NCBI GenBank assembly: GCA_046563655.1
Contig: CM102289.1
Coordinates: 7,378,001-7,442,000, forward strand
Length of the DNA stretch: 64,000 nt
Origin: Yuukianura sp. NJ FZ-2021
Taxonomy: Eukaryota
Reading direction: 5' to 3'
Within the stretch, counting starts at the first letter, position 1. Each line of letters opens with the position of its first letter. The notes below the pieces were generated by a model, which did no database searches, was not told the DNA's origin, and saw only the letters and a program-made list of their open reading frames with translations. Position numbers and translations under genes: made by a program. Of the stretch, positions 6,493 to 51,000 are shown one piece after another.

Positions 6493-7321
6493 AACTAAGG
6501 GAAAAAAATCTTCTGAAATCCAAATTTGTACGGAGAGGAACAAAGGTCATTTTTGGTTCAAAATTTAAATTCCAAAAACGAACATTTTTACCTCAACAGC
6601 AACTTCCTCTACAAACTGTGAACTCGAACGCATCTTAATTTTAGTATAAGAAAAAAAAACTAAACCACAAGTTTCATGAAAATGTGATCTTGGATTTTGC
6701 CCAAATATGAAAAAACACGTAAATATTTTAAGAACGAACACTACACGAGGGGTCGTACATATATGGGCAAGTGATATTGACTCTCAGCCATAATTCCATA
6801 GGATTTTGACGTATAAACGTAGGTACAAGTTATTGACGTCCCATTCCATAAAGTTAAAGTAACATTTTTAAGTTTTGTTGTGCTAATTAAGTTTTTTCTG
6901 TAAAGAGTCAAATACACGAAAAGCAGGCTTTTGTGTTCTTTTGAATTTTTTTGAATAATCTTTTCAAAAATTTTAGAAAGTAAACTCTTCTTCTTTCCTC
7001 TTGAAAGCTAATTTGTTAAGAAAAGTTTTCAAAAAGTGGTTAATTTTTTCTCATTTGTTTTAATTTCAATTGAAGATGTTTAAGTTTCTCTACTACACAA
7101 ATATTTTGTTTGAATGTGAAGGTACATTTCATTTTAAGTGGAAGATACAATAAATTAATAAAAAGCAATATTGACGTGTTGTAAAAATAATAAAGTTAGG
7201 GTTTAAAATTTTGAAAATCAGTCAAATTTAGGCTATTTGGATCTCGACTTTTGCTGCCATGCGTAGAACAGAGTAGTATACATGTGCAATAGCTACGGTT
7301 GGTGGACTATGGTTTCAAAAT

Positions 7322-11255: not shown

Positions 11256-14200
11256 TTATTTCAAATTTAAAGTGCACAAAATAGCGTAGGCTCTGCGCTG
11301 TTCCTGAGAATTTGTATCGAAAAGATGTACATAATTTTTTCCAAATGCAATTAGTCGCGTGGGTAAACGAGCTGAAATTTCGGAATTTGCTGCCGTTTCA
11401 TCTTCAGTGTCGATGTTCTGCTCATTTAACAGTGACTGTCCTGGAGATGCTTGCGAGTACACACAAAATGATCGGACGTCTTTTGAAAACGGATGGAAAG
11501 TGGAAATGTGATGAAGTTTCAGTGTTAACAAAACGATGAATCCAGTATTTGTGCCGACAAAGACAAATTCGTCCGTAGAGTGAAGAGCAGTCAAGTGCAG
11601 GGTTTTGCACATCATGGGATCTGGACCTTCACAATTATTCAGCAGTTTTTGTATATCCGCTGATGCAGTAATTTCTCGTTTGTCTCCATTCCAGCAATAA
11701 ATTACGCTTCCTGAAAGCAAACCAAAATTATAGTTAACAAAACCGTCATGAGGAAGTTCGTTTTGACAAAGTGCTGACCTGGAAAAAGATAAGAAAACAG
11801 GAATTCCTTCTTCGGATGTGTGTTGAGAAGTAAAACTTGAGCGTCACAATCGCTGCTGCCTTCATCTGCTAGATCATGTGATATTGTTTCCTGTCCGACA
11901 ACTTGGGCTCCAAGCAGAGAGAATATGCGCATGACGCCACTGTTTTCACCAGTCCAAATCTCGGCTTCATTTGAGCCTTCCCAACTCCTTGGAACAAGGG
12001 AATGTAAAGTCGATGCTTGTCCAAGTTCTGTCACCAAGTCACCAGTTTCTCCATTCACCAAGAAAAGTCTAGAAAATTTAGTAAGAAATATAATTTAGTA
12101 GTATCCAAGTATTTAACTTTACGACTGGAATGCTACGGATGCTCGCTGGGGCTTCGCCTTTCCCGAGAAAAAAAAATGAAAAAACAAAAATTCTCTACGC
12201 TCTACGGAATGCGAAATTTTTAAAATTATATCAAACTTTCAAAAACAAAAAAAAATTTTTTTTTGCTCATTCCACGCTTTATAATACTGAGTGAGTTTTA
12301 ATTGGGCTTGGGACAAAAAGTGAACAACAGTCGCGGACTTACACCTTCTCATTAGTATATGTTAATACGATAGATAGATTTTAGTTTTTAGTTTTACCTT
12401 CCACTTGAAAAAGCAACTGCAACCAATGCTCCAACTGCTTGAATCGAAATACATGCACCAAGACTTTGTCCAATGATCGACTTCAGTTCAAGTTCTCTAC
12501 TGATTCGTTCTCCTTCCAACTGAAAAATGAGAATGTTCGAAGAAATGTCGCCCATCCAAACTTGATTTCGCACCCGCGCCATTGCAGTGACAGCTCCAGG
12601 AATGAATGCAAATGCTTCACAACTTGCAAAACCCTCTTCCCGGACTTGGAGTGAGTAAATTGTTCCGGTGGAGCAACTAACCCACAATTCGTCATCCAAT
12701 CCCAAGGAAGTAACTACGTTCAGTTCCCAAGTTTCAGGTGGAGTGCCAACGCTTACTACGTCTCGTAATAAGACAAATTCGGGAGAGGAAGCGATTCGGA
12801 GAATTTTAGCTGCTGTGGGTCTATCTTTGGGAAGATTTTGCCAGCAGGCTACCATCAAATCCAGCATGTACATTGGATAACGCTCTGGTTTGACCATAGC
12901 TGGTCTCACACCTTCCAGAATGCTCTCTTTTATATTTTCGCATCCATCGTAAGGTTGCTTCAGACTCAGAATTTGGAAAATAACCATTCCGAGCGAAAAT
13001 GTATCCACCTGAAATTCAAAAAAAAATTATTTCATCCTTTTCAGAATTTTTTCGTTCACAAAGTTGTAGCTTTTCCAAACAAAAATTGAACGAACTTACG
13101 AGTTCAGTATATTCCTCTTCCCCGTTAAACCGTATAACTTCTGGTGCGATGAATCCTTCAGTTCCTCCGAATCCTTTATTTCCGGTCGGCAGAGCACTTC
13201 GACTAATGCCTATGATAATAAAAAAAAATTTAAACTCAGCAAAAATGAATTTCAAATAAAAAAAATGAACTACCGTAATCAGCAAGCTTCAGTTCTGTTT
13301 TGTAATCATATTTGGAAAACGGAGCTGGAAAAGCCCACACCAGAACATTCTCAGCTTTTAAATCTCTGTACAAGATTTTATGTCCATGAAGATACTCCAA
13401 AGCCTTCGCAACTTGAATTATACTCTGCTGCACTGTTGGTGGGGAAACGAAATCTCCAGATCGAGCATAATCCGCCAAAATAGTGTCAAGGGCTCCCCTT
13501 GGAGCTCGTGGCATAACAATCGAAAGTGATGTTTGTAGAAGACCAAGAAGTGGAACAATGTTTGGATGACTGACCCAGTAGAGCACTCGGATTTCACCTC
13601 GAGAAGCCAAGTATGCTCTACATGCCGACTGTGTTGGGGAACGACACCATTTTGTTTTGGCGGCTTTATAAGCAGACTGAGCTTCTTCATTTGCATCTCC
13701 AGGATCAATTGGATGAAAAGATTTGATAGCAACGTCCATCGTTCCCTTTAACGTTCCGCCAAAAACGAATCCAAAGGCACCACGTCCTAAAAATAAAAAA
13801 AAATTCAAAATCAGTATTAATTTAAAAAAAAACAGTTGCTAATTTTTTGAAATTTCATTCTTTACCCAATAACTGCTTCCTCTGAAGTTCATCTGAGTTG
13901 AGTAAATATCTTTTGGGGAGATCGTAAAACAGAATATCTGGAGCAACGCTGGAGAGATGAATTTCTCCATGTTTAGGACATTTCACAATTCTGAACTCTG
14001 AAGTTTGAGCTTCCAGAATAATATTTTCAATTGTCCAAGCATAGAAGTTTCTAGTCATAAATCCTAGATTTCTTGTTTCAGGACCCAGAAAAAAGTTTAA
14101 TCCAGCCGATTGTCCATGACCTCCAAATCTTGGAGTTTCAAAGGCAAGTCCAGTACGCAAACGTAGATTGCCAGGTCCAACTTCTGCATCAGCTTCATTT

Positions 14201-17200
14201 GTACTCAACGGACTGTGCCCTACTCCGGAATCGCTGGACATGCTCTTGGTCTTGCTGGAATTACTGGTTGACGGACCTTTTTCATTTGTCGGGAGACTAA
14301 AACAAGCTGGACATGGGCAGATCCTGGTGACAAGATACTTTCCTTCACTGGTGTGGACAAACCGAGTACCAATAGAGGGATACCAGTCTTCTAGTAAATT
14401 GTCAACTGCCTCCACACCAAGCGTCAACAATTTGGTCACACTTTCTATAGATGGGTTCAAAACTGAAGCTGGTTCTTCAGTTACGGTTTCCAAAGACAAG
14501 GAAAGACACTAAATTTTTTGAAAAAAAAAATATTAACAGTCTGTACAAAACTACCACTTTTTTGTTTAAAATTCTAACTCACGGGCAAATGGATTTCAAG
14601 AAGCCCGGCTTCATTCAAATCCACAGCATCCCAACACGTCTCTTCTTGGCGCCCACCACCAGCGCTCTCATCTGTTGAGTCCGCCAAATCACCTTCGTCG
14701 TCCCTTCGAAGCATAAACGTATGTGGTTTATCACTTCCAGTTACTTCTCTGATTCGAATCAACGTCAGCTCGCCATATTTCAGCTCCAGTCCAGTTTGCC
14801 AACAGAGCCACTCTGCAGGTTGGTCCAGTAATGCTACCATTGACGACGTAACTTCAGTTGGAGGAGGTAGAGTGAAGTAATGCCGCAGAATTTCAATCAC
14901 TCGATCATCGGATACTGGAAAATTCAATACAGTAAAAATGCCTCTTCAAGGTCATCTTCTACTACTTCATCAAAGTAAACTTACAAATTCGACTCATCAA
15001 CCGTGGCCAAAATCCTGATGGAAAGTAAGACAGCATAAGGAAGCGCGTAATCGCTCCCAATTCTTTCCGTTCTGGCCGCCAAACGGGTGGCTCCACTTTC
15101 GCTTCTTCGGAGCACGGCTCTCTTTGGTCCAATTTTTGACTTTCACGCCACTCACGACTTTGTTGCAACATCCAGGCTCTGGACCGCAGTGATACTTTCA
15201 CTCTTACTTCATTTTGTCCCATTTTCATCTGCAAACATAAAAAATATGAATTCATTCCAAAGCACTGCAAGTATGTCAAAAAATTTATATCTTGATGCTT
15301 ACCTGTTCCGGTGTTGGAAGAAGCGATGGAATGAGTAGGTTCACACCGTCATAAGGAATTGCCAACTCAAATTTTGAAAGTAAATCCAAAATGTAATCTT
15401 GAGTAGCCTTGGAACGTCCCTTGAACAAAAATGCTAAATCTTGTATCCTCATTGAACCGCCTTGACAGAATGGATTGATTCCTCGAATTGTGACGACATT
15501 CGCAAGAACGTCACAGAGCCATTGCGGGTCCAGGAAATACAATTCTCCAAAGTGCAGAAGAATTCCGTTTTCATGAAGGAATGTACAAGCCTACAGTTAA
15601 AAAGTGTTCAAAATTCATGAAAATATGGAAGTAAACTAAAAGAGCAAACCTGAGCAATTTCAGCATCATCGCGAAATTTAAGTCCATAATTTGTATCTAA
15701 CCACATAGAAGCCTGCGCCTTAAACTCCTCTTCCGTTAATACTGGATCTTGACCTCTTGACTTTCTTTCACTGGCCAAAAAAGTTACAATTTCTTCCAAA
15801 TGGATATACTTTGACGGTACGTGTTGCTCCAACAAAAACTTTCCATTTGAAGTTTTCAGTGTCACAGCAGCATCATAAATGACGGTACTCAAATTCTTGA
15901 TATTATACTTCGTTCGACACGAAATTTCCAGCGAAGTCAATACTCTTGGAAGTCCACGCTTTTCTGGATCCGAAACACAAATGAACTTCTCCCGAATCTT
16001 TTGTTCCAGGTAATCCAAGTATCCCGGTGGAAATTTTTCACTGACGAGATCATAGTGAGTTCCAACAATTATAACTGGAAAAAACATTAGAAATATTAGA
16101 ATCTCCAAGCATTTTTGGCTCTATTGTGATTACCTGGAGAGTTAGGAGCACGACCTTGAATGTTGACTAGCCATGCGTGGACTTCTCGCAGTCCCTTCTC
16201 ACCATCACAGATATTCCAAAGTAGTAAATACAGACTTCGTTTTGATAGAAAATAGGAATGTGTAGCATAATACTCCTTTTGACCTCCAAAATCCCACGTT
16301 CGAAACGTAACTGGACCACGGTTTCCTTTTTCCAAAGTTAAGCATCCAATGTCAACACCAACAGTGGACATAAGTTTGCCACCTTTGGAAGGTGTGTTGC
16401 CCATGCGTTTTGTCCAAGTATCCGACCCCTTGCCGGTTCCCTCCTGACGGAGAAGATTCAATAAACTAGTTTTTCCGATTCCATGGACTCCAACTGTCAT
16501 TAGCTTCATCCTGGCATAAGGTCTGGCATCTTCCAGGACACCTTAGACAAGAAATTGAGTCAAGTTAAACAATTTTTCGAAATTTTATATTGATTTCAAA
16601 ATCGGTGTTTTACTTTTCAAGTATCCCATAACATCTATAGTTTTTGATCCTTTGCGTTCAACAAGTGATTTGAGTGGTTCTTGTAGTTTACATCCTTGCA
16701 AATTCAGGTTCCAAATACGCGAAAGCAGTCCAATTTGCGGTGGAAGTTCTCCCAAATCTTTGTTTCCAGAAAGATTTAGCACCGAAAGCAGAGTTAATGA
16801 AGATATCCGGGGACTCAGTTCACTTAATTTGTTCTTAGATAAATCCAAAGTTGTGAGATTTGGAAACCAAACGAATGGTTTCCGACCTTCTATGGCCATA
16901 AGTTGATCATCAAATGATATTTCCAGAGAAGTTAGAGCATTTCCACTGAGTATTATAGTTTTTAGATTATCCAGTCTACGAAAGCGATTCCGGTGGGGAC
17001 ACAATACAGTTGGATCAACACAGCAGCTTGGTCCATTCGATTCGGAACATGAAAACCATGAACGAATTTTATTTTGACTCAAGTCGAGGTGACGGAGCGA
17101 TGCTGGATAGTCGCCAATTGAGCCCATTTCCTTTAAACTAGAAAAACAAATCGTTTAAAACTTTGGACTAACCAAAAAAATTACATCGAATTCCAGTTTA

Positions 17201-20058
17201 CCTGTTGAATGCCATGCTTAACCTTTGGATTCTATTGGCCCAACACGCCAACGCTGCTGGAACTTTAGTAAAAGAATTGTGACTAAGATTTAGCGATTGA
17301 ATTGAATTTCCTTGTGTTTCGGCTTTCAATTGTTCTTCATCAGCTTCTTCCCCAATAGTCACACTGGTTCGCCACATCGCTTCATGGCTAACAGAATCAC
17401 AGCTTCTACGGCTTCTAGAACTTGATCTTCTTCTTTTCTGAATTTGTTTTTCAGAATCAGTTGAATGCCTGTTAGAACTCTGTGACTCTTCAGTTTGAGG
17501 TCCCTGAGGAAGATCAGCGATTAGATTCAGCGATACATTCAGATCTTGAAGTTTCGGGGCAAGCCACATCGTGGACGGAAGTGAATCGAATTTGTTGTTA
17601 CTTAGATTAATTGTAACAAGGGAAGGAAAGTTAGTAAACAAAGCTGCCGGACATTCATCGATCCTGTTTTCTTGCATAAGAAGTTCTTGGAGACGGACCA
17701 ACAGTGGTCCACGCGACGGTAGAGTAATCTTGGTTATTTTGTTTCCGCTGAGATTGAGATATACGAGACTTGACAACTTAAAGATGCAAGATGGAATGGA
17801 GTCGAGTTGGTTGTTTGATAAGTCAAGGCGAGTAATAGCCTGCAAACCCATAGTTTCACCTCTGCCGGGTGCCAGTCGAAGTTTCGGATTCAGTTTAACA
17901 CCAGCAGAAACGAGCCATGTTTCTGAAACTTTAGTTAGCCTCTGCGCATGCCAGTTGACATTTACTGGAACTTTTGGTAGGAGTGATGTGGCCAGTAACT
18001 TCTTTCCAGTTCCCTCACGCATGTTCTGTTGTATCTCCTCAGTATGTAAAATTCCTTCAGCATCGGCATAAGCTTTCAAAGTTAAAAGCTTCCCGAGAAT
18101 TACATCGTCCCGGGACGATATTGATAGAGCAATGGAATCTTCATCCCGAGCTCCATGTTTCAGCAGAAGGTCAATCATACCGAGATCTCTATTTTTACAA
18201 GCCTCTGCCAGTGCACTGGACTCGTGCCTAAAAAAAGTTATCTCGGTAATCAAGTCAACACAATGCTAAGAGTAAGTTATGCATTACCTTGTTTCTGCTT
18301 TTGGATCACCCGTGGTTATGATGTATGTTGAAGTAGGCGCAAGAATGGGCAGATTTGGATCGGCCCCGGCTGATAACAGTGAAGTGGCAATTCCATGATG
18401 ACGAGCTTTGACAGCCAAGTGAAGAGCAGTTTGATATTCTTCACAATACAAGTTCACGTTGACTGGACAAATGAGATCTTTCCTGGGTTGAGTTGCGGTT
18501 GTTGGAGCCATTGAAAATGAAAGTCGCTTAATTATTCCTTGAATTCCTTCTGAGACTTTTCCTTTGGTGGGACTCGTAGCTTCATGAACGATGGCTCCTT
18601 TCTTGGAAACTCTGAATTTGAGTAAGATGTCAACCAGACGAGGATTGGCCATTTGACATGCAATGTAAAGACATGTCTGATCTGATACGTCCTTCTGATT
18701 GATGTCAAAAACCATTTCATATTCATCGTCAGCTGCATCATACCTGAAAAACAGAGAGTAAATTGTTTGAAAACAATTAATCCATAATGGAAATGGACAA
18801 TTTTCGACAGTTACTTGAATGTCGTAAGGAGGTCAGTTGGATAATTGAAATTCAGCAACAGATCCAAAACCGCCGTGTGGCCATGTATACAACAGACATG
18901 TATAGGCAACCATTTCTCAACTGTTTGGGATTTTGCCAATGCTGGAAATTTCTGTAACATGACATCATACTTAACAACATCACTGCCCAGAAATTTTGGA
19001 AGTTGTAACTTACTTCTAAAAGCTTGCTGACAACAGTTCGATGACCATGGTAAGAGGCAATATACATTGGGGAGTATTTTGTAACGGGGTGAATTCTGCC
19101 ATCGCTCCCATTTTCCAATAAAATGTCAACCAATTCCAAATTCCCTGATTCGCAAGCTCTGAAAGACAAGTAGTACCATGAAATTTTTCTATTTTAGCTT
19201 GTTTATTAAAATATTACATAAACAGAAGAGATTGAGTTCCATGTGGTGTTTTGTTGAGCAATTCCTTTCGATCTGAAGGTGAAATAGGTCGTAGCAGATT
19301 AGTCAAAGTCTTGACATCTCCTCTCGTAACAACTTCCCGGAGACTGGTATGAAGATCTTCACGAGCCACTTCTTTATCCTTGGTAAATTCTATTAGAAAA
19401 TTGTAAGTTTCCATGTGTCCTCCTCGCAAGGCCAAATCTGCTGCAGTCAGAGCTCTGCCTTCCAAGGATGACACATCAGCGCCAGCTTGAACTAGCCTCT
19501 TGACGTTGGATAAAAATCCGAATTCTGCAGTTGTGTGAAGTGGTGTTTTAAAATTATCTTGTCCGCCACTGACTGCGTTTGGATTTGCTGCAAATAAAAA
19601 AAAGATCACACTAATACTGCAAAAAAATCCATGCGAAATAGTAGCTGTATCCAACCTCCATGTTTTAGCAAAACTTCCAAACATCTTGAGTCATGCGTTG
19701 TCGCTGCTGCCTTTGAACACCAAAAATGTTAACAATTGACCCTCACTAATCAGCGAATAACACATGACACTATGCGTTATATCTATGTTCAACTTACATG
19801 TAGGGCCGTACGACCCCATGAATCCTGGCTTTCAATTTCACTTCCTAGGTCACCTCGAAGAAGGTCAATCAGTAACTCGGCGTTGTCCCATAAAGAAGCC
19901 TACGAAACAACAAATTTTAGCCATCTTCGTTAAACATCATCCAACACCATTGATATAAAAATTCAACTAATCAATTTAATTTTCCAAATTCGAGGTTAAG
20001 TTCAATTCACCTGATGCAAAAGATGACCAGGAAAATCTCCATCTTCGGCTTCGCTCAT
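11256..20058 (-). CDS. Lrrk: Leucine-rich repeat kinase (ROCO family: ANK-LRR-ROC-COR-kinase-WD40-like), multi-exon
   Basis: Ankyrin repeats (~18290-19900), LRRs (16610-18230), ROC GTPase motifs GVHGIGKTSL, WDFGGQ and GTHYD, COR (YFLDPQWLCDVL), kinase GRGAFG, YRDLKAENVL, LADYG|ISR and GTEGFIAPE. Start MSEAEDGDFPG at 20058. Confidence 0.95.
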
Positions 20059-26798: not shown

Positions 26799-28357
26799 TC
26801 ATACACTCGGAAAAGTAACTAGTAAATTGATAATGTTTGTGACAATGAACGCGTGGATCAGAACAGGGAAAGTACTTGTAGTAATATAGAAATAGTGTCC
26901 TACATCAAATTTTAAAGGTCGATTTGACCTGATGACACACTTGCCGAAATTCAATTCTGAAGGATTTGTTTGTCTTGAATTTAACCAACACAACTTGGAG
27001 TCCAAAATTGAATTTTCCGTAATTCGAGCACAACGATCAACACACCCATACAAAGTAAAAATTAAAAAAAGTGCAATTATTGCAGTAGTGACAAGCAGAG
27101 CCATGCTTGGAATGCGGTCATGAAGACGAATATACGAAAATACAGTGACGATGACCAACAAACTGCCAAGTGGAATGACATGAGGTAGAATCCTTTCCAC
27201 CAAGGCCATATACAAAGTGTGATGAACTTGTTGAGCTCTGTACAATTGTTGTACCATGTCAAGCAACTCTCTAGGCTCCGTTTTGGGGCATCTTTAATAT
27301 AGTTATTACAGTAAATTAAAAAATACTTTCATTAAAAAACAGCGCAAGTTTGAACTTACGTCGCCAGTTTAGTCATATTTCTTTGAAATTCGGTGGTTAT
27401 ATAAACGTGAAAAAGCATCATATAAATGAATGCCAGTGCTATTATCCAGTTTGCCACAAATAGAATTCCCAATACGCAGAACAAAGAAATTGTGATCCAA
27501 ATATTTCCAGTATTGATATATCTGAGTCCAGCGAAGTTACAATGTACTGCGTATATGCCAGCTGGCATACCCAATACGAAAGCCACTGCGGCAGACAAAA
27601 ACGTCAACCTCGTCATGAACTGCATTCGTATATCTTCATTTCCAGTTTTGTTTGCAGTACGAATTTGCTCTAGTAATATTATAAGAAACACATGTATAAC
27701 CAACACAAGTATTATACATATTATTAAGAATATATAGTATAATATACGTAGTGTACATAATAACATTCGTACACATGTAACACATGTAGTAGCTTTGGAT
27801 ACGAGTATGCATAAAGTATGAAGTATGATTTATAACTTTCAGAGTCAAACTATACTTCCTGCATACTTATATCTAAATATCTAAACAACTAATTTGATTT
27901 TTATGCATTTTATACTTGCTGTTTTGTTGTATTTTTTTTAATATTTCTATTTTCATTATATGTAAGTGTCTTTTTTATTCTCAAATCTATGCTTACCTCC
28001 AACTTTATTGAAATATAGCAACCCGTTGTAATGTACTGGAAAAACTATGCGTGCGATTAAGAGGGTCATATATATAGGAGATGCAGTTTGTAGAGTCAAT
28101 CCAATGAGAACTACCACTGTAACATCTGATACATTCGTAGTTGGATCTGTAATGCAACCTACTACTAAAAACCCAAAAACAAATAATTGAATGCCAACAA
28201 TCATAAAAATTCTGACTAGACTTTTAAATATGTCAAAGTTGTGGAATTGGGGACACAAAAGTTTAGTTTCTGAGTCCCAATAGAAGGGAATAATTCCATA
28301 CAAGTTACCAATTTTGACGCACCAGACTAATGGTTCAAAGGATTTTTGAGACAGCAT
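26799..28357 (-). CDS. 7TM chemoreceptor-like protein (GR/OR superfamily), copy 1; exons 28357-27997, 27669-27360, 27291-26799; 387 aa
   Basis: In-frame splicing, multiple hydrophobic segments, N-terminal G..PF.W motif, C-terminal RPLKFDVGHYFYITTSTF...NIINLL resembling the TM7 region of arthropod chemoreceptors. Confidence 0.72.
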
Positions 28358-28749
28358 GTTCTCACACTTTTTTTTCTAAAATTTAGCGTAATTTTTTTTG
28401 TTTCGGTCCCCAGTTTGCCACTACTCGCTTTCCGAGCAAAGTAGAGCAAACGTTTCTTATCCAGAAAGCTCCTTAATTGGTCAAGGTTAATCAGTTCTTC
28501 CCTTACCATGTTGATTAATATAAATTTTAGACAACAGCGTTAGATTAAGACCGCCTATTGAAAACAGCGTTAAAACATCTTAACTTTGAAACACCTTAGG
28601 ATCGTTAGTTTGTTCTATGCATTCCAGTAGCAAACAAAAAAGATGCTGAAATATTAGTTGTGGCTTTCGAAGACTTCGTTCCTAGATATGTTTTGAAATT
28701 TTAAAAGACTTCGACGATTAAAAAAAAAACGAATCTCTTTTTGAAAACC

Positions 28750-28916
28750 ACGTACCTTGTGAAGCAATGTTATTAGCTAAAAATTTCAATGAATGCCCTC
28801 AAATCATCAAAGACAAATTTGCACTTTTCGTGGAAATTTGAATCCGATGAGGAAAACAAAAAAATTCAATCGGCGTCGGTTCTGAACCTTTTGATGACCT
28901 CAAAAGTTCAACTTGA
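28750..28916 (+). pseudogene. Decayed duplicate of the iGluR terminal exon
   Basis: aaatcatcaaagac..tttgcactt..tgaacc..tgatgac.tcaaaa..aacttga aligns by eye to 26598-26725 at an offset of ~2.2 kb, with indels. Confidence 0.8.
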
Positions 28917-28985
28917 ACCACCAAAACACAAATTTTAAATAAAATTGTGTGAAGGTTAATTCCAAGCTGTCACATTTTTATTATT

Positions 28986-30574
28986 TCAAACACTCGAAAA
29001 AGTAACTAGTAGATTGACAATGTTTGTGACAATGAAGGCATGAATAAGCACGGGGAAAGTGGTTTTGGTAAGATAGAAATAGTGTCCTACATCAAATTTA
29101 AGAGGTCGATTTGACCTGATGACACACTTTCCGAAATTTAATTCCGTAGGATCCCTTTGTCTTGAATTTAGCCAACCAAGTTTGGAATCCAAAATTGAAT
29201 TTTCCGTAATTCGAGCACCACCAACAGTACACCCATACAAAACCAAAATTGAAAAAAGTGCAATTATTGCAGAGACAATCAGAACCATGTTAGGGATGCG
29301 ATCTTGAAGACGAATGTGTAAAAATACAGTGACGATGACCAACAAACTATCGAATGGGATAATGAGAGGTAGCATCCTTTCCATCAATGCCATGTACACA
29401 CTGTGATGAACTTGTTGAACTCTGTAAAGTTGTTGTACCATGTCCAGGATCTTCCTGGGTTCCGTTTTGGTGAACCTGAAGTATAAAAATTATATTTATT
29501 TAACAAAATTAGTAAATAATGGCTTTGGTTTAAATTTTTTACTAAAATGAACACTTACGCTGCTAATTGCTTCAACTTTTTTTGAAACGCAGCGGTTACG
29601 TAGACATGAAAAAGTATTATGTACACAAATACCAGCACAACTATCCAGTTTGCCACAATTAAACTTCCTAGTAAGCAGAACAACGACATTGTGATCCAAA
29701 TATTTCCTGTGTTGAGGTATCTGAGTCCATCGAAGTTGCAATGTACTCCGTAAATACCAGCAGGTAAATCCACTACCACAGCTACTACGGCAGACCAAAA
29801 CGTCAATCTCGTCATAAATTGCATTCGCTTATCGTCATTCTCACTTTTCTTTTCAGTGTAAATATGATCTAGTAATTAAAAGGAAACATGTATAACATAA
29901 CTGTTATTAAATGTATAAGGTATATATACATTTCATTTCATTATTAAGTAGCGAAGCTACTTTATGCATCGACCTTGTCTGTCTGTCTGTCTGTCTGGCA
30001 GGCCGGCCGGCCGCCGGCAGCAATTATCTCGGAAACGGCTCAACATTTCCGGGATCTGTTTTCACTATTGAACACCGGAGGTCGGGCGGATGCTCACTAT
30101 TGAATATTATCCCGGTGGGTCAACTCCTTCCGGGTCAAAGGTCAAGTGTTTCGCTACTTTCGTATACTCCAGGTTACGACCGGATTTATTCCAACCTCTA
30201 ACTCGCTTACCTCCAACCTCGTTCAGGTAGAGCAACCCGTTGTAATGTACTGGAAAAATTGTGCGTACAATCATAGTGGTTATAAAGATATGAGATGACG
30301 CTTGAACAAGCAATCCAATGAGAACTACCATTGTAGCATCTGATACATTTGCAATTGGATCTGTAATGTAACCTAGCACTAAAAACCCAAAGACCAATAA
30401 CTCTATGCCAACAATAACAGAAATTCTGACACAAATTTTAAATTTGTCAAAGTTGTTCAATTGAGGACACAGCAGTTGTCTTGTGTCTGAATCCCAATAG
30501 AACGGAATAATTCCATACAAGTTGCCAATTTTGACACACCAGAGAAATGGATCAAGCGAGTCCTGCGACAACAT
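28986..30574 (-). CDS. 7TM chemoreceptor-like protein (GR/OR superfamily), copy 2; exons 30574-30211, 29868-29559, 29475-28986; 387 aa
   Basis: Clear paralogue of 26799-28357 with the same intron positions and phases and an intact frame. Confidence 0.72.
29941..30190 (+). mobile_element. Non-autonomous Helentron-associated (HINE / DINE-1-like) element in intron 1 of chemoreceptor copy 2
   Basis: Subterminal inverted repeats AAGTAGCGAA (29946-29955) and TTCGCTACTT (30150-30159), 5' hairpin AAGTAGC-GAA-GCTACTT, (GTCT)n microsatellite followed by ATCTCGGAAACGGCT, 3' stem-loop TCC(A)GGT-TACG-ACCGGA, T-rich ends. Absent from the paralogous intron. Confidence 0.8.
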
Positions 30575-30845
30575 GTTATTTTGAAAGTGCAACTTTTTTG
30601 AAAGTCGTCTCTCAGTGTTTGCCTAAACTCCGTTTGCGGACTGGTTTCGAAATGCTGAAAGACCTTGACAGTTGATACTCAATCGGATAAAATATCAAAC
30701 GGAGAAGTTTTTTTAAACCCTGCAACTTGTGTAGCAATGGCTTTGACTTTTCAATGCATTTTTTAATAACGTTCGTCCTTTTGAATACTTTTTGTCATTT
30801 GTTCGAGGAAAATTCCAATGTTAATTATTTGTAAATTTTTAAGTT

Positions 30846-38160: not shown

Positions 38161-41100
38161 TTAGAACACTTTAATATTTCTCCTGTCTTCGAGAATGATC
38201 CCATCGTCAATTGTCAAAAGGCCCTGGAAAAAAATTGAAAGTTAAAATGTGAAATGGCCTTTGGTTTTGATAAAGTTCTAGAAAAATGTATATTATTTTT
38301 ACCATAAAGAAGAAGAAGAGTGCCACTGCAGAGAAAAAGTGCCAAACGTCATGATCGTCATAAAAATGTTTCCAGAATTTGGAGCATGGCTGATTGAGAG
38401 TTCGAGATTCAGCGGCAGTTGCTCTCCATTCGGTCAAATTGATGTTGAACTTTCTAAAAGCGCAAGTACAGAACAGGATGCCAACGGTCAAGTAAACAAC
38501 GGTTTGCAGAAAGTAGGGCGAAACTTTCTTCCATTTTGGTTTGGATCCAACGCCTTCCTTTGGACGAGTTTTCCAGTAAAATACCTTTGGACCACAACAA
38601 AAATTTAGCAATTCCTGCTTTTTGAAAAGAGGTTTTACAATTTTTGAAATTGGAAAAGTTCTTACTTTCCAAGCGATGTAAGAAATCAAAGACAAGACGA
38701 CATTGAAGATCAGTAGATTGAGTAAGTAGTGGGCAAAATCTTCAGTGATGGCCAAATGAATAGAAGCTGCTGTGTTGAGTATGAATAGAGCTCCGTACAA
38801 GATCTTTTTCATCAAGCGCACTTTCGGGTCACGGTGGACAATGACTCGCATTTCTTGCATCTGGAAATGACAAAATAAAATTCATGAAAGTTTTCGAATT
38901 TTCCCCAAATTCAAAAAATGTCAAACAAATTTTTAAACTCACTTTTAAACATGTTCCGGACAGTTTGACGCGAACTTTTTCTGGAGTGAGGACGAACAGC
39001 ACTCCTCTGTAGAATCCCAGCATCCATTTTCCTAGTTTTTAAGTGAAAGTTAAAAGCAAATTTTAAATTTTAAAAATTGTTTTAAAATCATTGCTAAATG
39101 CCAAAACCTTTTGAATCCTTGATTGTTCCGTGGTAGTAGAGTCCAATACAGTAAGTAGCTGTGAACAGAATGTGAAATCCGGCAAAAATGAGGCGTGCAA
39201 TAACGGCGTTCTGTTCGGTCCATCTGCTTTCGATTACATAAAACAAGGCTGACACAATTGTCAAGACGGTTAGCAGCAGGAACGCTTTGGTCCTGCCAAA
39301 ATTTCAAAATGTCACAAACTGAAAATCAACTATTCCAAAATTTGTTTTTCTCAAAATTTCAATTTTTCAAAATTTTACCCAGACGGACTGGCATGAAATC
39401 TCAACTGATGAATACTTGACAGTAATATGATGGCAATGACATACATGAAGGCCACATCTGAAAAAAAAATAAAAAATAGTTCAGAACACCAAAAAATGCG
39501 AATTTAAGTAGAGGACATCAAAAAATTCGATTGAGAATAGAAATTTAGCCAAAATTTTGGAACCTCGGCTTACCGAATTGAAAAGTGGAACTTGATGGAC
39601 AAAAATGGTAAGCCGAACTGAGGATGCCTTCCATGATGAGTGACATGCCCATGGCAATGTAAGCGCCAAATGGAATACAAAGTCCACGGTGAATGGCCCT
39701 GTATTCTTTGAGATTAAACAAAGTAGCAGATCTCCAGTAAACGATGATTATAAAAGTGAGACCAAAGACAATGTAGAGTAAATTGGAAATTAGGTGGTTG
39801 AAGTCACTCAAGTCCTCGACACGGATTCGACAAAGCTCATTGTAGTAACAGTGGTCAAAGTCACCAGTGTCAGACATACTCTGGAAATATTCAAAAACAT
39901 CAAAATTTTGAATTTTGTTTTTTTCAAAAGTGTTGACCTACCTTCCAATGGTAATAGAGAAACTGGTAGACCGGGATAATATAAAAAACTGAAACGTAGA
40001 GTGTCGCTGTGCAGTATCTCTGCGACTGTTTTCGACTGCCATAAGTGTCTGAATTTGCAACGATTCCATGATAGGTCAACTCTTCTTCCTCGTTCGACGT
40101 TTCCAATTGATTGTCGTTAGGAAGCATAGCCGTCACTGCTTCGGCAGTAACTTGTTCAATGTTTTGTTTGTACTCTCTCCTGAAATGAAAAACAATTTCA
40201 AAATTTCATACATTTTTTGAATAACAAAATTATGAGAACTACTTTAGTCGACGATCGCAAATACAAAAAACGATAAGCGTCAGTAGAAGGCAGGGGATGA
40301 AGACTCCTATAATTTGGATTCCAAACATCCAAGACAGGTCATAGTTCACGGTCTCCCGGATTTTTATTGTAATGAACTTTTCTCTATTCGGATTGCTCTG
40401 TAATCCCACAGCTTTGAAATCATCCGATTTTGCAGCGATTCTTCGACTTTTGCAGTGACTGTCATCCGAAAGTGGAATTATAATCACTGTAAATCCTTTG
40501 GGAAAGTCAATTTTCTGAAAAAAAATGAGATTAGATTCTGGAAAAATGAAATTTTTAATTTTTCAGTTAGATACTTACACGCAATCTTGTAACTGCTGCA
40601 CGAGTCATTCTTTTTAATTCGCTCGTTCTGGCAACATTTTCTTCAACGTCGTACACTGGACACTTAAACGACAAAAAAAATGCAAAATTCTAATTGTAGG
40701 TTTTAAAATTTCCAAATTTTGGTATTACAGTTGGATCGTCTATGGCAATTATTGTGCAAACGTCGGATCCCACTCCTTCAGATCTTGACAAAATTTCAAT
40801 CATGCGAATATCCGAAGCTGGGTCAAATTCAAACCTATAGTACGTCGTCGCCATCGGATTTACTGTCATGCTCCGCTCTTCTCCAATACTGAAAAAAAAA
40901 ATTTTAAATTCATCAAATTTTTAAAAATGAAACTTTTTTTTTTTCTGAAAGTCGAATTTATGCTTACTGCATTAGGAGTCCAGTTGACCTTTCAAGTATA
41001 AGTGAAAATGGAACGCCATTTTCACTGTACGTGTCCACGGAAACGATGACTGACGTTTCCTCTTTGTTCTGAATGCCAAGTTCATAGTTCGTTTTATGAA

Positions 41101-42844: not shown

Positions 42845-43632
42845 TTATTCTAACACGTAGATGAAAGTGGGGATTTCGAGATGCACCAGTTCTTCCTTAA
42901 TAATTTCGCTAATTCTGTCCCAGTTGCCGCGACTAAGACCAGCTCCAATTCTTGGCATGTGAACAGTCGCATCCATCTCCAAGGCTTTTGTTGCTACTTT
43001 CCTGAGTGCGATCCGTAAGCCAGCGTACTTGATCGGAGGGTCCCCGCTTCTGTTCGGAGCTGTTTGGCCAATCATATTTGCTACTGTTATGTCTTCCGTG
43101 ACAGATACGAATTGAACTAGCCCCAGGTCGATTGGTGTTGGAAGGGTCCGGTACTGCTCTTCAGGAAGGTGCCATCGTTTGGACAAGGCGAGAACGAACC
43201 CCCTCCCCCAACCACCGGCAGTATTACATATATGAGCAATGATTTTCTTGCCAGTGCCAATTGGGGTGGTTGCGTCTCCTTCGACGTATTGGAGAACATG
43301 CGGCAGAGACGAAACGTGACTGGATCCACTGAAAAAATAGAACATCAATGAATCATACTATTTCATATCAATGATGACGGGAATACCACATATGCTGAAT
43401 CTAAGTGCGTGTGCAGTTACCTTGAATTAGTACTGAAGTGCTCCGCCTCCGAATCTGAGGAAGATCTGTCTGACGGAGTTCTCAAACTCCTGCTTCTGCC
43501 GCTGACCTTTGACCTTGACGATGTTATGGCAAGACGGGAGTTCTGTTTTGAAGTCAGCCTAGTCTTGGCTTTGGTGACTCTACCACTGATTGTTGATGAA
43601 GTTAGGGCCTTCTTATTATGTTTGCTATCCAT
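42845..43632 (-). CDS. Macrodomain ADP-ribosyl hydrolase-like protein (bacterial SCO6735/Poa1p-like type) with a basic Ser/Arg/Lys-rich N-terminal exon; exons 43632-43421, 43328-42845; 231 aa
   Basis: YVEGDAT, IIAHICNTAGGWGRGFVLALSKRW, VANMIGQ, VHMPRIGAGLSRGNW. A phase-2 GT-AG intron at 43329-43420 joins the exons in frame. Confidence 0.87.
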
Positions 43633-44606
43633 GATGAAAGATGAGATCTGGTAATTGAAGAACAGCTGTTTATGAAAATTATTCAATTAGTGTTTAGGTA
43701 GTAATTTAAGTACATTTAACCAAATGAAAATTTGTTTTCAAATGTTTATCTAAAACACACCAGCTGTACCTCTGCACCGCCCCGGTATACAAACCGACGC
43801 ATTTATGGACACGTATTGCAGAAAATGCATTAAATTTGTTTTGAAGAAAGCTGCTTCCTCCAAACGATGCAATTATTATTTTATTAATTAATTAATTATT
43901 ATTAATTAATTTATTAATTATCAAATTAGCTAATTTTAATTGAAAGTAGTTACAATTATAAATAAACTGGCATAGGTTGAAATCCACTTGAAATAATATT
44001 AAACCTTTTACAGGTCTAAAGATGAAAGCGTCTTTTTGCACAAATCGTGTAAAGTTTTGAACTTTTCAAAATTCTGGATTACCGTTATGAAAACGTTGCA
44101 CTAATCTATCACCAAAATGATTCACTATGTCAAAATACTGTTAGTTGACAACGCTTTTAGTCAACCATCCTAAATCCAAATAATCAAATATCGCTTATCA
44201 TACCTCAATACATCAATTCCAAAAACTCCATCATCCTCTTTACTTACTAAAACATTGAAAACATGATTCATTTTGAGAAGTCGTGTTTGCACAACATCAT
44301 TCGACTACTCTGTACGCTTTAAACAAGTCTAACCGAGACGAATTCCTATAGCCAGTAACCTTGGAACTCTGGCTAGTCTCCCTGCAGCATTACATAAAAT
44401 ACAGCAAAAAAGTGTACGATCATTAAAGTCCGTTTTGTGGTCTCTGATTCACTTAAAACTCACTAAAGTGTTTACGTTTTGGACTTTAAATCGGACGTTC
44501 TGGAGCGTGACGGCGGAAGGTGGTGAGAAAAACCCAACAATTTTTAGACTATTCAGCGTAAACTTATTTATTGTTCGTTTTTGAAGTTCATTGACAGCAA
44601 ATAATC

Positions 44607-46457
44607 ATGGTGGAACACAACGAATCGGAAGCGGTTGCACTGCAAGTGCAACAGCCGGGGTCACCGGCTCAGGAATCTACAACTTCCTGGCCAGCAACAA
44701 ATAGATTTGTAAGTAATTTCAGCAATTTTTCAAAAAAAAAACTGTAAATTGTAAGAAATTTGAAATTTCCAATTTTATTCGACTCCAATAATTGGAACCG
44801 TAATTATTACGGTCAAAACAAGATGGCCACGCCCTAAAAACTTGAAATCGATACGTTTTTTTTTTAAAATTACGATTAAACATTCTGTGGAGATCTTGAG
44901 ATGCTGACAAATTTTTAATTTTCTTAGTCTAAATATTTTTTGATTTGCAGAGAACAATCGTTCGCCAAAATTCGGAAAGAATTGGAACGATGGCAGAAGT
45001 GATTCTGCCAATGAACAAGCGTAGTGTCAAAGCACGCAAAAGCGAAGATATGCCGGACGGAGTTGAGTTTAGTATTATCCAAGGTCATTCTGGGGGAATG
45101 GATGAAGAAAAACAAGTGAAAGTTGAAGTACCTACCAAGAAATTTCCAATATTCATTGCTGCCATTTCGCTGATCCAGGTCTACACACAATACTTGACAC
45201 TGTATTCTAGATTTCTTAGTTTGCAAATTGCAATTGCAATTTATTTTTAAATTTCGCAGATCATGTTTTTCGTTCTTGGCGATGAATGGACTTGGCTCAT
45301 GTTTTGCTACGACCCATTCCGACGACACGAACTTTGGCGCTTTTTCTCGGACATGTTGGTGCATCGATCGTACGTTACTTTCTAAGTTTCAAATTTTTGG
45401 TTTACAAAGTAATCTCTAAATGACAGCATTCATGGCTTAAGCCATGGCAAATTTGCTTAAGCCAAAGCTTTGTCACTAATTATCTTAGTTTTATTATCTT
45501 ATGATATTATTTTGTTCTATAATTTGTTTTAGATTGTGGCATCTAATGTCCAATGTCATCTTCCAACTGATTCTTGGCCTGTTGCTGGAAATTGTTCATC
45601 ATTGGAAACGGATTGGCACAATTTATATGGCAGGTTAGCATGAAACAATCTAAGTTAACAAACACTAACATTGCCTAACCTTAAAGTATTATTCATAGAA
45701 CATCATGACCTAATTATAACATAACAGCATAAATAATAAAAGATAACATAGTATGAAAGCATAAATTGACTTTACTAAATTTTGCACAGGCGTTCTTGGA
45801 GGAGGACTGGCGGTGACGCTATTTGATCCTTTACGGTATTCGCTTGGAGCTTCTGCCGGAGTATACGGACTTCTATTGGCTCATCTTGCCACCATCATTT
45901 TAAACTGGGACCAAATGGATTGCAAATTTTGCCGCCTTTTTTCACTATTGTTTTATATCATTGTCATTGACATTGGAAGTACACTGTACGTCAACTTATA
46001 TCTCAAAATCGATTCTCGGGTAAGTGCATTCTTACAAAGAAAATTACTGAAATTTTACAATGCCCAAAGAGAATTTATGTTATTGAAGGTGAGTCATGCT
46101 GGACATGTTGGAGGAGCCATAGCTGGATTCATTGCGGCAGTGTTCGTGCTAAGAAATTTTGAAAAACTAGCTTGGGAAAAGCAATTTCAAAAGATACTGG
46201 CTGTAATTAGTATCGTCTTGTTCGTGATTGTTGTAATCGTCAACGTAGCATTTCCAAGCCTGTACCAGCGTTCTGTATTTAATTTTCACTACGTTGAAAC
46301 TTTCGTTTACTACGTCATCAAAACAGTTTATGGTACTCCGGAATGGGAATCAATCGAACCAGTTTGCATGGAAGATCCTGAATGTGCTGCATTTGTGAAG
46401 GCTGAATTACAAAATACGACACAAACTTCAACTACGGAGTCACAATTGATGTTCTAA
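44607..46457 (+). CDS. Rhomboid intramembrane serine protease, multi-exon
   Basis: ELWRFFSDMLVH, WHLMSN, catalytic GASAG and SHAGHVGGAIAG; short GT-AG introns; TAA at 46455-46457. Confidence 0.92.
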
Positions 46458-48070: not shown

Positions 48071-51000
48071 ATGGTAAGAGCAAGCGCATTACTTGATTGG
48101 CCAATTGGCTGTCAACTTATGTTTATCGGAGTTTGAAAAGTGTGAAATCCTGATTGCCTCTACAGGCATGACCTAATTAATGTTAATTGATTAATATATT
48201 GTACATTGTTTTCATGTAGCCACTTAAGTTGGAGGTCAAGAGGAAGTTGACAGCAAGATCTGATCGGGTAAAATGTGTTGATTTGCATCCCGCAGAACCA
48301 TGGATGCTCGTGGCGCTGTACAATGGAAATGTTCATGTCTGGAATTACGAGAATCAGACACTCATCAAAACATTTGAGGCGAGCATAACGATTTTTTGAC
48401 ATGACGTCTCATTTTTAATTTTTACATGCATGCGTTCAACCTGTCGTTTCCAATTCTAGATTTGTGATCTCCCTGTACGAGCTGCAAAGTTTGTTGCGAG
48501 GAAGAATTGGGTCGTTACTGGATCAGATGATGTTACCGTCCGTGTCTTCAATTACAATACGCTTGAACGTGTCCATTCGTTTGAAGCGCATTCAGACTAC
48601 ATCCGTTGTATTGTTGTTCACCCCACACAACCATATTTACTTACCAGCAGCGGTAATAACAAACAATGGTATTAGTTATTTATAATTTCAATTCTAATGT
48701 TAACTTTGAATTTACACAGATGACATGTCAATCAAGCTTTGGAATTGGGAGAAATCTTGGTCGTGTCAGCAAGTCTTTGAAGGGCACACACACTACGTGA
48801 TGCAAATTGTCATCAATCCGAAAGACAACAACACCTTTGCTTCTGCTTCACTTGACCGGACCGTTAAAGTTTGGCAACTCGGGTCACAGGCTCCTAACTT
48901 TACACTGGATGGGCATGAGAAAGGTGTCAACTGTGTGGACTACTACCATGGCGGGGAGAAGCCATATTTGATTTCCGGGGCTGATGACCATGTTGTCAAA
49001 ATATGGGACTATCAAAACAAAACTTGTGTTCAAACCCTGGACGGACATGCTTCAAACGTTTCTGCTGTGGCATTCCATCCCGAACTTCCAATCATCTTGA
49101 CCGGATCGGAAGACGGGACTGTTCGTCTGTGGCATGCCAATACGTACAGGCTTGAGTCAACTTTGAACTATGGTCTAGAGCGTGTATGGTCAATTTGTTG
49201 CCTGAAAGGTTCCAACAATGTTGGTATTGGCTATGATGAAGGAAGCATTATGATCAAGGTCAGATTCTTTGCCATCATTTTGTCGACTAACATGTAGAAA
49301 ATAGTATCTTATGCTGAGCTATTCTAATTGAAACAGGCCGGTCGAGAAGAACCTGCTGTGTCAATGGATTCAAGCGGAAAGATCATTTGGGCGAAGCACT
49401 CCGAAGTTCAGCAAGCCAATCTCAAAGCTTTACCGGATGACGCTGAAATCAAGGACGGAGAGCGTCTACCTTTGACTGTGAAAGACATGGGCAATTGTGA
49501 AATTTATCCACAAACGATTGCGCATAATCCAAATGGAAGGTAAAAGTTTCATTGATCACTCAAATTGGTGCTTAGTAGTACATTCTTACATACTTTTTAG
49601 ATTTGTCGTGGCATGCGGAGACGGAGAATACATCATCTACACTGCCATGGCTTTACGAAACAAAGCGTTCGGTCCCGCCCAAGAATTCGTGTGGGCACAA
49701 GATTCTTCAGAGTATGCCATACGCGAAAATTCATCTTCCGTCAAACTGTTCAAGAATTTCAAGGAAAAGCGCGTCTTCAAACCGGAATTTGGAGCTGAAG
49801 GTTTGTTTACTCTCTGAAAAAAAAAGTTCCATCTCTCAAAATCACTCTACCATAAATATACATTGTCATTACAGGAATATTCGGAGGATACTTCTTGGGA
49901 GTAAAATCCGTATCGGGCCTTGCTTTTTACGATTGGGAGACACAGGAATTGATTCGTCGTATTGAGATCACTCCAGTAGCAGTTTATTGGTCCGATAATG
50001 GAGAGTTGCTCTGCATTGCCACGGAAGACAGTTACTTTATATTGAAGTACAACGAGGCTGCCGTCACTGCTGCACGAGAATCCAAGGAAGGAGTGTCTGA
50101 AGACGGATACGACGATGCATTTGACGTTGTTCATGAAAACCAAGAGGTTGTCAAAACTGGAACTTGGGTGGGCGACTGTTTCATTTACACAAACAGCGCC
50201 AACCGTCTCAATTATCATGTTGGTGGAGAAATCGTTACCGTGTCACATCTGGATAGGTGAAGCAACTATTTTCAAAAACCAAGCAAATATAAGACAATTT
50301 TGCAACAATTTACCAATTTTGATTTTGATTTCAGAACAATGTATCTTCTTGGTTACATTCCTAAGGACAATCGCTTGTACTTGACCGATAAAGAACTGAA
50401 CGTCGTTTCCTATTCTCTTCTTGTATCTGTCTTGGAATACCAAACTGCAGTCATGCGAGGTGACTTTGAGACTGCGGACAAGGTGCTGCCAACTATTCCC
50501 AAGGATCAACGTACCAGAGTAGCACATTTTCTGGAAAAACAGGTTGGTGAAACTTGTAAAACATTCGAACTCGAATTTCAGAATGAATGTTATGCTTACA
50601 ATTAGTTTTTGGTGCTATTTTTAAATAGGGCTTCAAGCAGCAAGCCTTAGCAGTCTCATCTGACCCCGAACATCGTTTCGATCTGGCTCTTCAACTTGGA
50701 AATCTGAAAGTTGCTTATGAAATTGCCACTGAGACAGAACATGAGCAAAAGTGGAAGCAAATTGCAGAATTGGCACTGTCGCAATGCAAATTTGATTTAG
50801 CACAAGAAGCACTTCACAAGGCAGAGGACTTGGGAGGACTTTTGCTTCTGGCTTCGTGTGCAGGTACTTAGATGTTCTCTTGAATTTGAAAATGCTCGGT
50901 TTTAAAAATTTTAATTTTTCAAGGAAACGGTGACATGGTGCAAAAGGTGGCCGAGTCAGCAGAACGAACCGAGAAAAACAATATTTCATTTACGTCTTAC

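Follow-up and report, generated by a model that had tools for sequence, protein, structure and literature searches.

How does a macrodomain of bacterial type come to be encoded, together with an intron and a basic N-terminal leader, among the genes of an animal? The question is raised by a gene on the minus strand (42845..43632) of a 64,000-nucleotide stretch of DNA from Yuukianura sp. NJ FZ-2021 (GenBank assembly GCA_046563655.1, contig CM102289.1, positions 7,378,001 to 7,442,000 of the forward strand), which at its full length is called the window below. The answer that we favor, with rather more belief than doubt when it is taken as a whole, is that the gene is genuine and part of the genome of a springtail-like animal, having been acquired long ago from a prokaryotic or phage source and since then furnished with an intron and a leader, and that its product would be a mono-ADP-ribosyl hydrolase directed by the leader to the nucleus or to nucleic acid. 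The gene is laid out as follows.

42845..43632, minus strand: coding span of the gene, from the ATG at 43632-43630 to the TAA at 42847-42845; the product has 231 amino acids once the exons are joined.
43421..43632, minus strand: coding part of exon 1, 212 nucleotides, with the ATG at 43632-43630, 70 codons and two further bases.
43329..43420, minus strand: intron of 92 bases, GT..AG (GTAACT ... TTTTTTCAG), phase 2, splitting a serine codon between AG and T.
42845..43328, minus strand: exon 2, 484 nucleotides including the TAA stop at 42847-42845, with the whole macrodomain inside it.
42854..43294, minus strand: macrodomain core, residues 12-158 of the exon-2 product and 83-229 of the full protein, delimited by phmmer alignment to 2fg1.
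43558..43614, minus strand: leader residues 7-25, read directly from the translation as KK, 12 residues and KAKTR.
43343..43345, minus strand: in-frame ATG within the proposed intron, a possible start of a single-exon product MFYFFSGSS...

The identity of the domain was addressed through both sequence and fold. Compared with PDB sequences using phmmer, the exon-2 product matches BT1257 (2fg1) at E 1.4e-44 (155 bits) and the Streptomyces coelicolor macrodomain 5e3b at E 7.1e-39, while the next family, CHD1L, follows at E 8.9e-12 (49 bits) and OARD1/TARG1 at E ~3e-3 (21 bits). An AlphaFold2 model based on 80 aligned sequences (mean predicted local distance difference test, pLDDT, of 91.5) is composed of six strands and four helices in the three-layer α/β/α arrangement of the macrodomain fold, with a six-stranded mixed sheet. 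These strands and helices span residues 13-158 of the 160 residues of the exon-2 product, in agreement with the original prediction, made from the letters of the window alone, which had placed the whole macrodomain in one exon. Foldseek ranks 2fg1 first (template modeling score, TM, of 0.89 at 51% identity), followed by 2afc, 5e3b (TM 0.81), ALC1 (0.78), TARG1 (0.73), and DarG (5m3e, 0.71), and it returned 227 PDB matches at E≤0.001, all of macrodomain type among the matches listed. Because of the phmmer scores and the Foldseek ranking, on which the setting apart from the ALC1, TARG1, and DarG groupings rests, we assign the predicted domain to the BT1257/SCO6735 type and not to the ALC1 or TARG1 type, as had been proposed when it was called a stand-alone bacterial (SCO6735-like) macrodomain. 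The NCBIfam model of DarG gives the domain only 11.9 bits against a cut-off of 250.

The motifs quoted in support of that proposal are all present in the exon-2 translation, and the residues of the active site were located by transferring the numbering of SCO6735 (PMC9411070) to the window protein via the phmmer alignment, with the following result.

43223..43225, minus strand: N35 of the exon-2 product (N106 of the full protein), equivalent to SCO6735 Asn27; Asn in 133/133 aligned rows.
43064..43066, minus strand: Q88 (Q159 of the full protein), equivalent to SCO6735 Gln85; Gln in 133/133 rows.
42926..42946, minus strand: phosphate-binding loop G-A-G-L-S-R-G (G128-G134), with Arg where bacteria have Gly.

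In the same numbering of the exon-2 product, SCO6735 Val25 corresponds to I33, Lys34 to R42 (a basic residue is retained), and Gly126 and Gly128 to G128 and G130, both retained. Q88 occupies the position of the catalytic Lys of TARG1 and DarG. SCO6735 is reported to need Asn27, Gln85, and Gly126/Gly128 for activity, and the mutations described as abolishing it hit Asn27, Lys34, Gln85, and Gly128 (PMC9411070). All of these residues are retained, Lys34 as Arg, and the catalytic core of the window protein is intact.

The loops around this core depart from the family. Loop 1 is 3-5 residues shorter than in BT1257 and SCO6735. The mobile loop, which PMC9411070 describes as a hallmark of the subclass tied to efficient handling of DNA, five residues longer than in TARG1 or DarG and carrying Lys89 and Lys93/94, has nine residues in the window protein as opposed to 10 in SCO6735 and 11 in BT1257; most relatives have 10-11, and the other members of the clade described below have seven. 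The long, Lys-bearing form that marks the subclass is thus lost in part, though not completely. In the phosphate-binding loop the window protein reads LSRG, whereas 120 of the 129 other rows read LAGG and Arg stands at that position in 1/129; L[SG]RG is found in 4/4 rows of the clade as first delimited (window, L001, P0007).

The two exons join in frame across the GT..AG intron into an open frame of 231 amino acids. Moving the end of exon 1 to 43422 or 43423 introduces stops; if it is moved by a whole codon, to 43424, the frame stays open but the intron no longer starts with GT; among the end points compared, 43421 is the one that keeps both the frame and a GT-starting intron. Directly upstream of the domain lies a textbook acceptor (a run of T followed by CAG). 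The guanine-cytosine (GC) fraction is 0.50 in exon 2 and 0.46 in exon 1, compared with 0.35 in the intron and 0.33 in the flanks. From the frame, from the position and phase of the introns in the related contig L001, and from the contiguous leader of the relative P0007, we infer that exon 1 is spliced to the macrodomain exon. The leader itself agrees with the separate upstream exon of about 70 K/R/S-rich residues that had been predicted: it has 70 residues, of which 15 are Lys or Arg and 27 Ser or Thr, and an isoelectric point (pI) of 11.6. This low-complexity, K/R/S-rich composition suggests that it is disordered, and a profile search of the leader found no Pfam family. Its residues 7-25 match what we take to be the classical bipartite nuclear-localization pattern. 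As a separate observation, the minus-strand sequence just 5' of the start codon (window positions 43633-43660, TTCTTCAATTACCAG) resembles a further splice acceptor, and there may be an untranslated or coding exon further upstream of the start codon.

Relatives were sought in several collections. A word-indexed protein search gave 408 proteins at E≤1e-5, and the figures that follow come from the best 120 of these 408, in a collection in which about a quarter of the entries carry names. The closest matches are P0003 (65% identity, on a metagenome contig of 1661 bases), P0004 (58%), and P0007 (53%, 229 amino acids), the remainder showing 46-59% identity. The few named matches are all bacterial, and none carries an animal name, with three named springtail proteomes present in the collection. 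With one genome taken per prokaryotic species there are at least 595 relatives, from many phyla and with identity up to 55%; IMG/VR contributed 130 viral contigs with relatives, and an exhaustive search of 1.84 billion representatives returned 4116 proteins at E≤1e-3 and 109 at E≤1e-30. A search for longer, fused proteins left two of 485 candidates, a bacterial-looking fusion of 501 amino acids, in whose N-terminal part no Pfam family was found, and one weak match; CHD1L was not returned by it.

The gene is not a lone case but, judged from the trees, a member of a eukaryote-style clade with several architectures. This clade comprises eight rows, namely the window protein, the two copies on L001 (the contig of P0003), P0007, P0251, P0285, P0306, and P0312. 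The last four were chosen from 149 new representatives by their short loops, a criterion that is circular as far as the loops are concerned, hence the tests by tree. The eight rows are recovered with ultrafast bootstrap/SH-aLRT (Shimodaira-Hasegawa-like approximate likelihood ratio test) support of 98/94 in a careful tree of 79 rows, with SH-aLRT 92 in a quick tree, and with SH-aLRT 96 in a quick tree from which both loops and the LSRG columns were removed (138 columns). The four-row core (window, two L001 copies, P0007) had support of 98, 99, and 100/99 in earlier trees, the first of which excluded L018, L019, and L022 (domain in long open reading frames) and L023 (partial match), the later ones being hand-picked subsets. 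Members of the clade are 53-65% identical to one another and retain the invariant core.

Of these members L001 is the most informative on gene structure, as it carries two tandem macrodomain exons (255-1423) with the N-terminus lying off the contig, in the following order.

L001 255-800: exon A, 546 bases, with no stop and no in-frame Met before the domain, ending at a GTAATT donor.
L001, between exons A and B: intron of 151 bases, GT..AG.
L001 952-1423: exon B, ending in a stop.

Both exons are preceded by a T-rich CAG acceptor in phase 2 with a serine codon split between AG and T, at the same position as the intron in the window, and the joined frame is open through both domains, which gives a double-macrodomain protein. 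The two copies are identical at 128 of 148 residues and at 398 of 444 bases (85% DNA identity is given for the tandem exons), and the ratio of nonsynonymous to synonymous substitution rates (dN/dS) between them is 0.30-0.40 by three methods. P0007 has a leader of 75 residues, rich in K, R, S, and D and with a pI of 10.8, contiguous with the domain in one open reading frame. P0285 and P0312 are short stand-alone forms. P0251 (294 amino acids, metagenome contig of 1479 bases) is extended at the C-terminus by 145 residues, in which a Cys/His-rich stretch comes after a weak match to G-patch (E 0.0096; its 16.3 bits fall short of the 22-bit cut-off). P0306 (568 amino acids, metagenome contig of 3644 bases) has its macrodomain at the C-terminus, behind a match to an Arc/Ty3-type capsid at residues 150-297 (E 1.3e-8) and one to retroviral nucleocapsid knuckles at residues 361-388 (E 1.4e-5; Pfam zf-CCHC 7.5e-5). 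This could be a retroelement equipped with a macrodomain, something also seen in some RNA viruses. A further relative, P0247 (316 amino acids), carries two macrodomains in tandem, both with the long loop of the bacterial-like type, the second of which no longer has the equivalents of the Asn and the Gln; the duplication in P0247 is independent of that in L001.

Since the relatives are prokaryotic or of phages, horizontal acquisition is the best reading of the sequence comparisons, and an origin from prokaryotes or phages appears well supported. The nearest relatives lie outside Metazoa, the gene is linked to native genes, and its intron is shared with L001. The donor is less clear. In a quick tree of 133 rows the clade falls in a group of 23 rows (SH-aLRT 89) with 13 viral contigs, six unnamed rows, and 0/38 named bacteria, and in this group loop 1 is short (6-8 residues) in 17/19 rows as opposed to 1/52 of the other bacterial or unnamed rows. 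The viral contigs resemble phages, with RIIB, endonuclease VII, and large-terminase families close to the macrodomain gene and PHROG matches for 5/18 and 5/11 of the neighboring proteins tested; the nearest relatives of the clade lie on contigs of large phages. The careful trees give a different sister, also phage-rich (P0075, L105, L126, L141), with support of only 58/43 and 77/61; because the quick and careful trees disagree on the sister at such support, we name no specific donor. The transfer from a bacterium to an animal put forward in the original prediction thus stands as far as acquisition into an animal chromosome goes, by linkage to SID-1, rhomboid, and springtail-like coatomer genes, whereas a phage or phage-like lineage, instead of a bacterium, may have been the donor. 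On L105, a phage-like contig of 282 kb, the macrodomain gene has a nicotinate phosphoribosyltransferase gene (Pfam E 6e-44) ~940 bases downstream of it, a single other open reading frame separating the two (3986-6661). This neighborhood might point to a connection of NAD salvage with the removal of ADP-ribose in phages.

Horizontal transfer into springtails is already well known, and for a BT1257/SCO6735-family macrodomain we found no published case in the literature from a springtail or any other animal. In Folsomia candida 809 foreign genes are reported, mostly carbohydrate-active enzymes, 466 of the 809 with RNA support (PMC5490193); terms for macrodomains or ADP-ribose are absent from the text of that paper and from three of its supplementary files.

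The surroundings of the gene are those of an animal genome. The window contains no N over its 64 kb and has a GC fraction of 0.38, and the following genes and frames were recognized in it, the first four by their Pfam domains.

38207..39937, minus strand: exons of a SID-1 family double-stranded RNA channel gene (PF13965, E 7e-22 and 1e-30, in two separate open frames).
45765..46457, plus strand: Rhomboid-domain exon (PF01694, E 4e-12).
48710-50260: WD40 and COPA/B propeller exons (coatomer beta').
13236-18265: leucine-rich repeat (LRR) and protein kinase exons.
7322-8940, minus strand: FAD_binding_4 and D-arabinono-1,4-lactone oxidase (ALO) domains, a gulonolactone-oxidase-like gene.
26799-30622, minus strand: two similar adjacent sets of frames for multi-pass membrane-like proteins, which look like a tandem gene pair; no Pfam family was found in the two frames tested.

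The SID-1, rhomboid, coatomer, and LRR/kinase neighbors are all split into exons, and the macrodomain gene lies 2.9 kb from the SID-1 exons and 2.1 kb from the rhomboid exon; these are its neighbors, and no adjoining DarT gene was found. The coatomer exon is 91% identical to Orchesella cincta, 90% to O. dallaii, and 89% to Allacma fusca, compared with 83-87% for other arthropods among the matches listed, and as its best named matches are three springtails we call the genome springtail-like.

What the protein does can be approached through its closest characterized relative. SCO6735 is reported to remove protein ADP-ribosylation as well as the thymine-ADP-ribose made by DarT on single-stranded DNA, and to rescue Escherichia coli from DarT (PMC9411070). 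It also hydrolyzes uracil-ADP-ribose on RNA (PMC13036486), and it is described as inactive on 2'-OH ADP-ribosylation of RNA (PMC11833690). On terminal phosphates the last source is inconsistent, the results giving SCO6735 as inactive on 5'-phospho-ADP-ribosylated RNA and DNA and the discussion as active on RNA phosphate ends. AdfM, a macrodomain from a phage, acts against DarT2 (PMC13309987). Given the retained active site, the most likely activity of the window protein is the removal of mono-ADP-ribose in the manner of SCO6735. In the proposed sequence of events, a macrodomain of the BT1257/SCO6735 type would have been acquired long ago by a springtail-like animal from a prokaryotic or phage source, after which a spliceosomal intron would have been gained along with an upstream exon supplying the basic, Ser-rich leader. 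The protein would act as a mono-ADP-ribosyl hydrolase through a water-mediated reaction as proposed for SCO6735, with Gln replacing the Lys of TARG1 and DarG; its likely substrates would be ADP-ribose on thymine in single-stranded DNA or on uracil in RNA, and possibly on acidic residues of proteins, and the leader would bring it to the nucleus or to nucleic acid. Nuclear or nucleic-acid targets are proposed by analogy, because basic leaders occur in both the window protein and P0007 and because the partner in P0306 binds nucleic acid. A part in repair, or as an antidote to ADP-ribosylating toxins of microbes, was suggested in the original prediction and would be a conceivable role.

Several observations weigh against this account, or against parts of it. 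Pfam Macro (PF01661) gives no match to the domain at E≤1; since three of the four relatives that do match score 18.0, 18.2, and 20.7 bits, below the 22-bit cut-off, and only P0260 (23.8 bits) lies just above it, we consider the profile insensitive to the BT1257/SCO6735 subclass. An in-frame ATG (43345-43343) sits inside the proposed intron, in an open frame (42845-43357) with one Met upstream of the domain, and there is no canonical poly(A) signal (AATAAA or ATTAAA) within 350 bases 3' of the stop. The leader has no detectable similarity to that of P0007, and a comparison with P0306 likewise gave nothing significant (E 21 and 0.41 for the two). The members of the clade other than the window protein are metagenome or assembly sequences, none of them from a named organism. 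In the active site, a Gly of the phosphate-binding loop has become Arg, and the mobile loop is shortened, with Asn and Gly at the positions of Lys89 and Lys93 and one Arg nearby. Because the mobile loop is trimmed and lysine-free and an Arg has been added to the phosphate loop, substrate preference, or even activity, may differ from that of SCO6735.

These observations lend themselves to other explanations, which differ in what they dispute. The gene might not belong to the animal at all, being bacterial or phage contamination or a mis-assembly, as one could suspect from closest named relatives that are all prokaryotic among the matches listed. We hold this to be very unlikely because the gene lies between intron-bearing animal genes in a springtail-like genome; in addition, the 64 kb are free of N with SID-1 and rhomboid exons close by on either side, the gene contains a GT..AG intron, its AT-rich non-coding flanks resemble the rest of the window, and its identity to the prokaryotic or phage sequences found is only 50-55%. 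No more credible is vertical inheritance, by which the gene would encode an ancient macrodomain of eukaryotes, diverged from ALC1 or TARG1. The domain does fall in the same broad ALC1/TARG1-like class, but the 155 bits to BT1257 as opposed to 49 to CHD1L and 21 to OARD1 led us to reject this origin; moreover, every tree built places the clade within sequences of prokaryotes and phages, and animal names are missing from the best 120 of the 408 matches, in the partly named collection with its three springtail proteomes.

Other doubts concern how the gene is expressed and what its product does. The poly(A) result, together with the incomplete RNA support for the foreign genes of Folsomia candida (466/809, PMC5490193), would suit a silent relic of transfer that looks intact but is unexpressed. 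This is improbable in our estimation, given an intact frame with a conserved active site, a clade that has diverged deeply and yet kept its invariant core, a dN/dS of 0.30-0.40 between the L001 copies, and the gain of an intron and an exon. The gene is real and probably functional. Somewhat less improbable, though still unlikely, is that translation of the macrodomain starts at the ATG at 43345-43343 and involves one exon only, the leader then being a chance open frame. The Met before the domain in the stop-to-stop frame 42845-43357 is in its favor, as is the failure of the leaders of the window protein and P0007 to align. Against it stand the acceptor of T-run and CAG upstream of the domain, found at the same position and phase in both L001 exons, and exon A of L001, which, having neither an in-frame Met before the domain nor a stop after it, can be expressed only by splicing; the GC fraction of exon 1 is coding-like, in contrast to 0.33-0.35 in its surroundings, and P0007 has a leader of like composition in one open reading frame with the domain. 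A slightly larger share of doubt attaches to function, as the protein could be a reader of ADP-ribose, like the ALC1 macrodomain, or could have shifted to protein substrates, rather than removing ADP-ribose from nucleic acid. Such a shift would agree with the short mobile loop, from which both lysines are missing, with the replacement of Gly by Arg in the phosphate-binding loop of the window protein, L001, and P0007, and with the SCO6735 mutant K89E, in which DNA activity was lost or lowered and protein activity raised (PMC9411070). We nevertheless think it unlikely, since the equivalents of Asn27, Gln85, and Gly128 are kept, with Lys34 as Arg, and since the macrodomain of P0306 is joined to the zinc knuckle of a Gag nucleocapsid, a module that binds nucleic acid. 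We therefore retain the acquired, spliced gene for a putative hydrolase as the preferred reading.

Research into the removal of ADP-ribose from the bases of DNA and RNA is still young and to our knowledge has so far dealt with bacteria, phages, and human TARG1. An animal that keeps an additional enzyme of bacterial type, from the subclass that is most efficient on DNA, would be a natural test of whether base ADP-ribosylation plays a part in conflict between animals and microbes, and the altered loops and nuclear-looking leader raise the value of the window gene as a test case. Its interest is moderate when taken alone and greater through the clade of fusions around it, among which foremost the Gag-macrodomain fusion suggests use of the module in genome conflict within eukaryotes. 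A wider reading, which we put forward tentatively and regard as doubtful, is a single entry of a thymine/uracil de-ADP-ribosylase from a phage or bacterium into an ancestor of springtails or other soil micro-eukaryotes, followed by radiation there as a portable module, joined again and again to nucleic-acid-directed parts, with roles in toxin-antidote and retroelement biology. Its partners would be a basic leader, a second copy of itself, a Ty3-type Gag with zinc knuckle, and a G-patch-like tail; it would serve the host as an antidote to base-ADP-ribosylating toxins of soil microbes, while the Gag fusion would protect the retroelement from ADP-ribosylation by the host, as macrodomains do for RNA viruses.

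Compared with known systems, the window protein shares only its macrodomain class with ALC1/CHD1L, from which it differs in having 231 amino acids with a low-complexity leader and no Snf2 helicase, and in scoring 49 bits as opposed to 155 with BT1257. TARG1/OARD1, which reverses thymine- and uracil-linked ADP-ribosylation (PMC13036486), is likewise of the same class but weakly related (E 3e-3), and Lys84 of its Lys84/Asp125 dyad is Gln in the window protein, the Lys position being the only one compared. The DarG macrodomain of DarTG2 and phage AdfM belong to a family that hydrolyzes thymine-linked ADP-ribose on DNA and of which phage-borne stand-alone copies exist (PMC13309987). The window protein shares its fold with them (TM 0.71 to 5m3e), and the nearest relatives of its clade lie on phage contigs; unlike DarG, it has Gln in place of the catalytic Lys (Lys80 in DarG), ends two residues past the macrodomain, lacks a DarT-binding domain, and has no DarT neighbor. 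Like the foreign genes of Folsomia candida, it is an intact prokaryote-type open reading frame linked to native genes in a springtail-like genome, and it adds a non-metabolic member to a springtail catalogue dominated by carbohydrate-active enzymes in which, within the text and files of PMC5490193 named above, macrodomain terms were not found. The closest likeness is to BT1257 of Bacteroides thetaiotaomicron (2fg1, 2afc; ~51% identity over the whole domain, TM 0.89) and to SCO6735 of Streptomyces coelicolor (5e3b; ~43% identity over the whole domain, TM 0.81), with Gln at the TARG1/DarG Lys position, the Asn and two loop Gly kept, and a basic residue at Lys34. From both of these the window protein differs in a loop 1 that is 3-5 residues shorter, a mobile loop that is 1-2 residues shorter and without both lysines, and a Gly changed to Arg in the phosphate loop, and above all its gene is encoded by an animal, with an intron and a basic leader of 70 amino acids.

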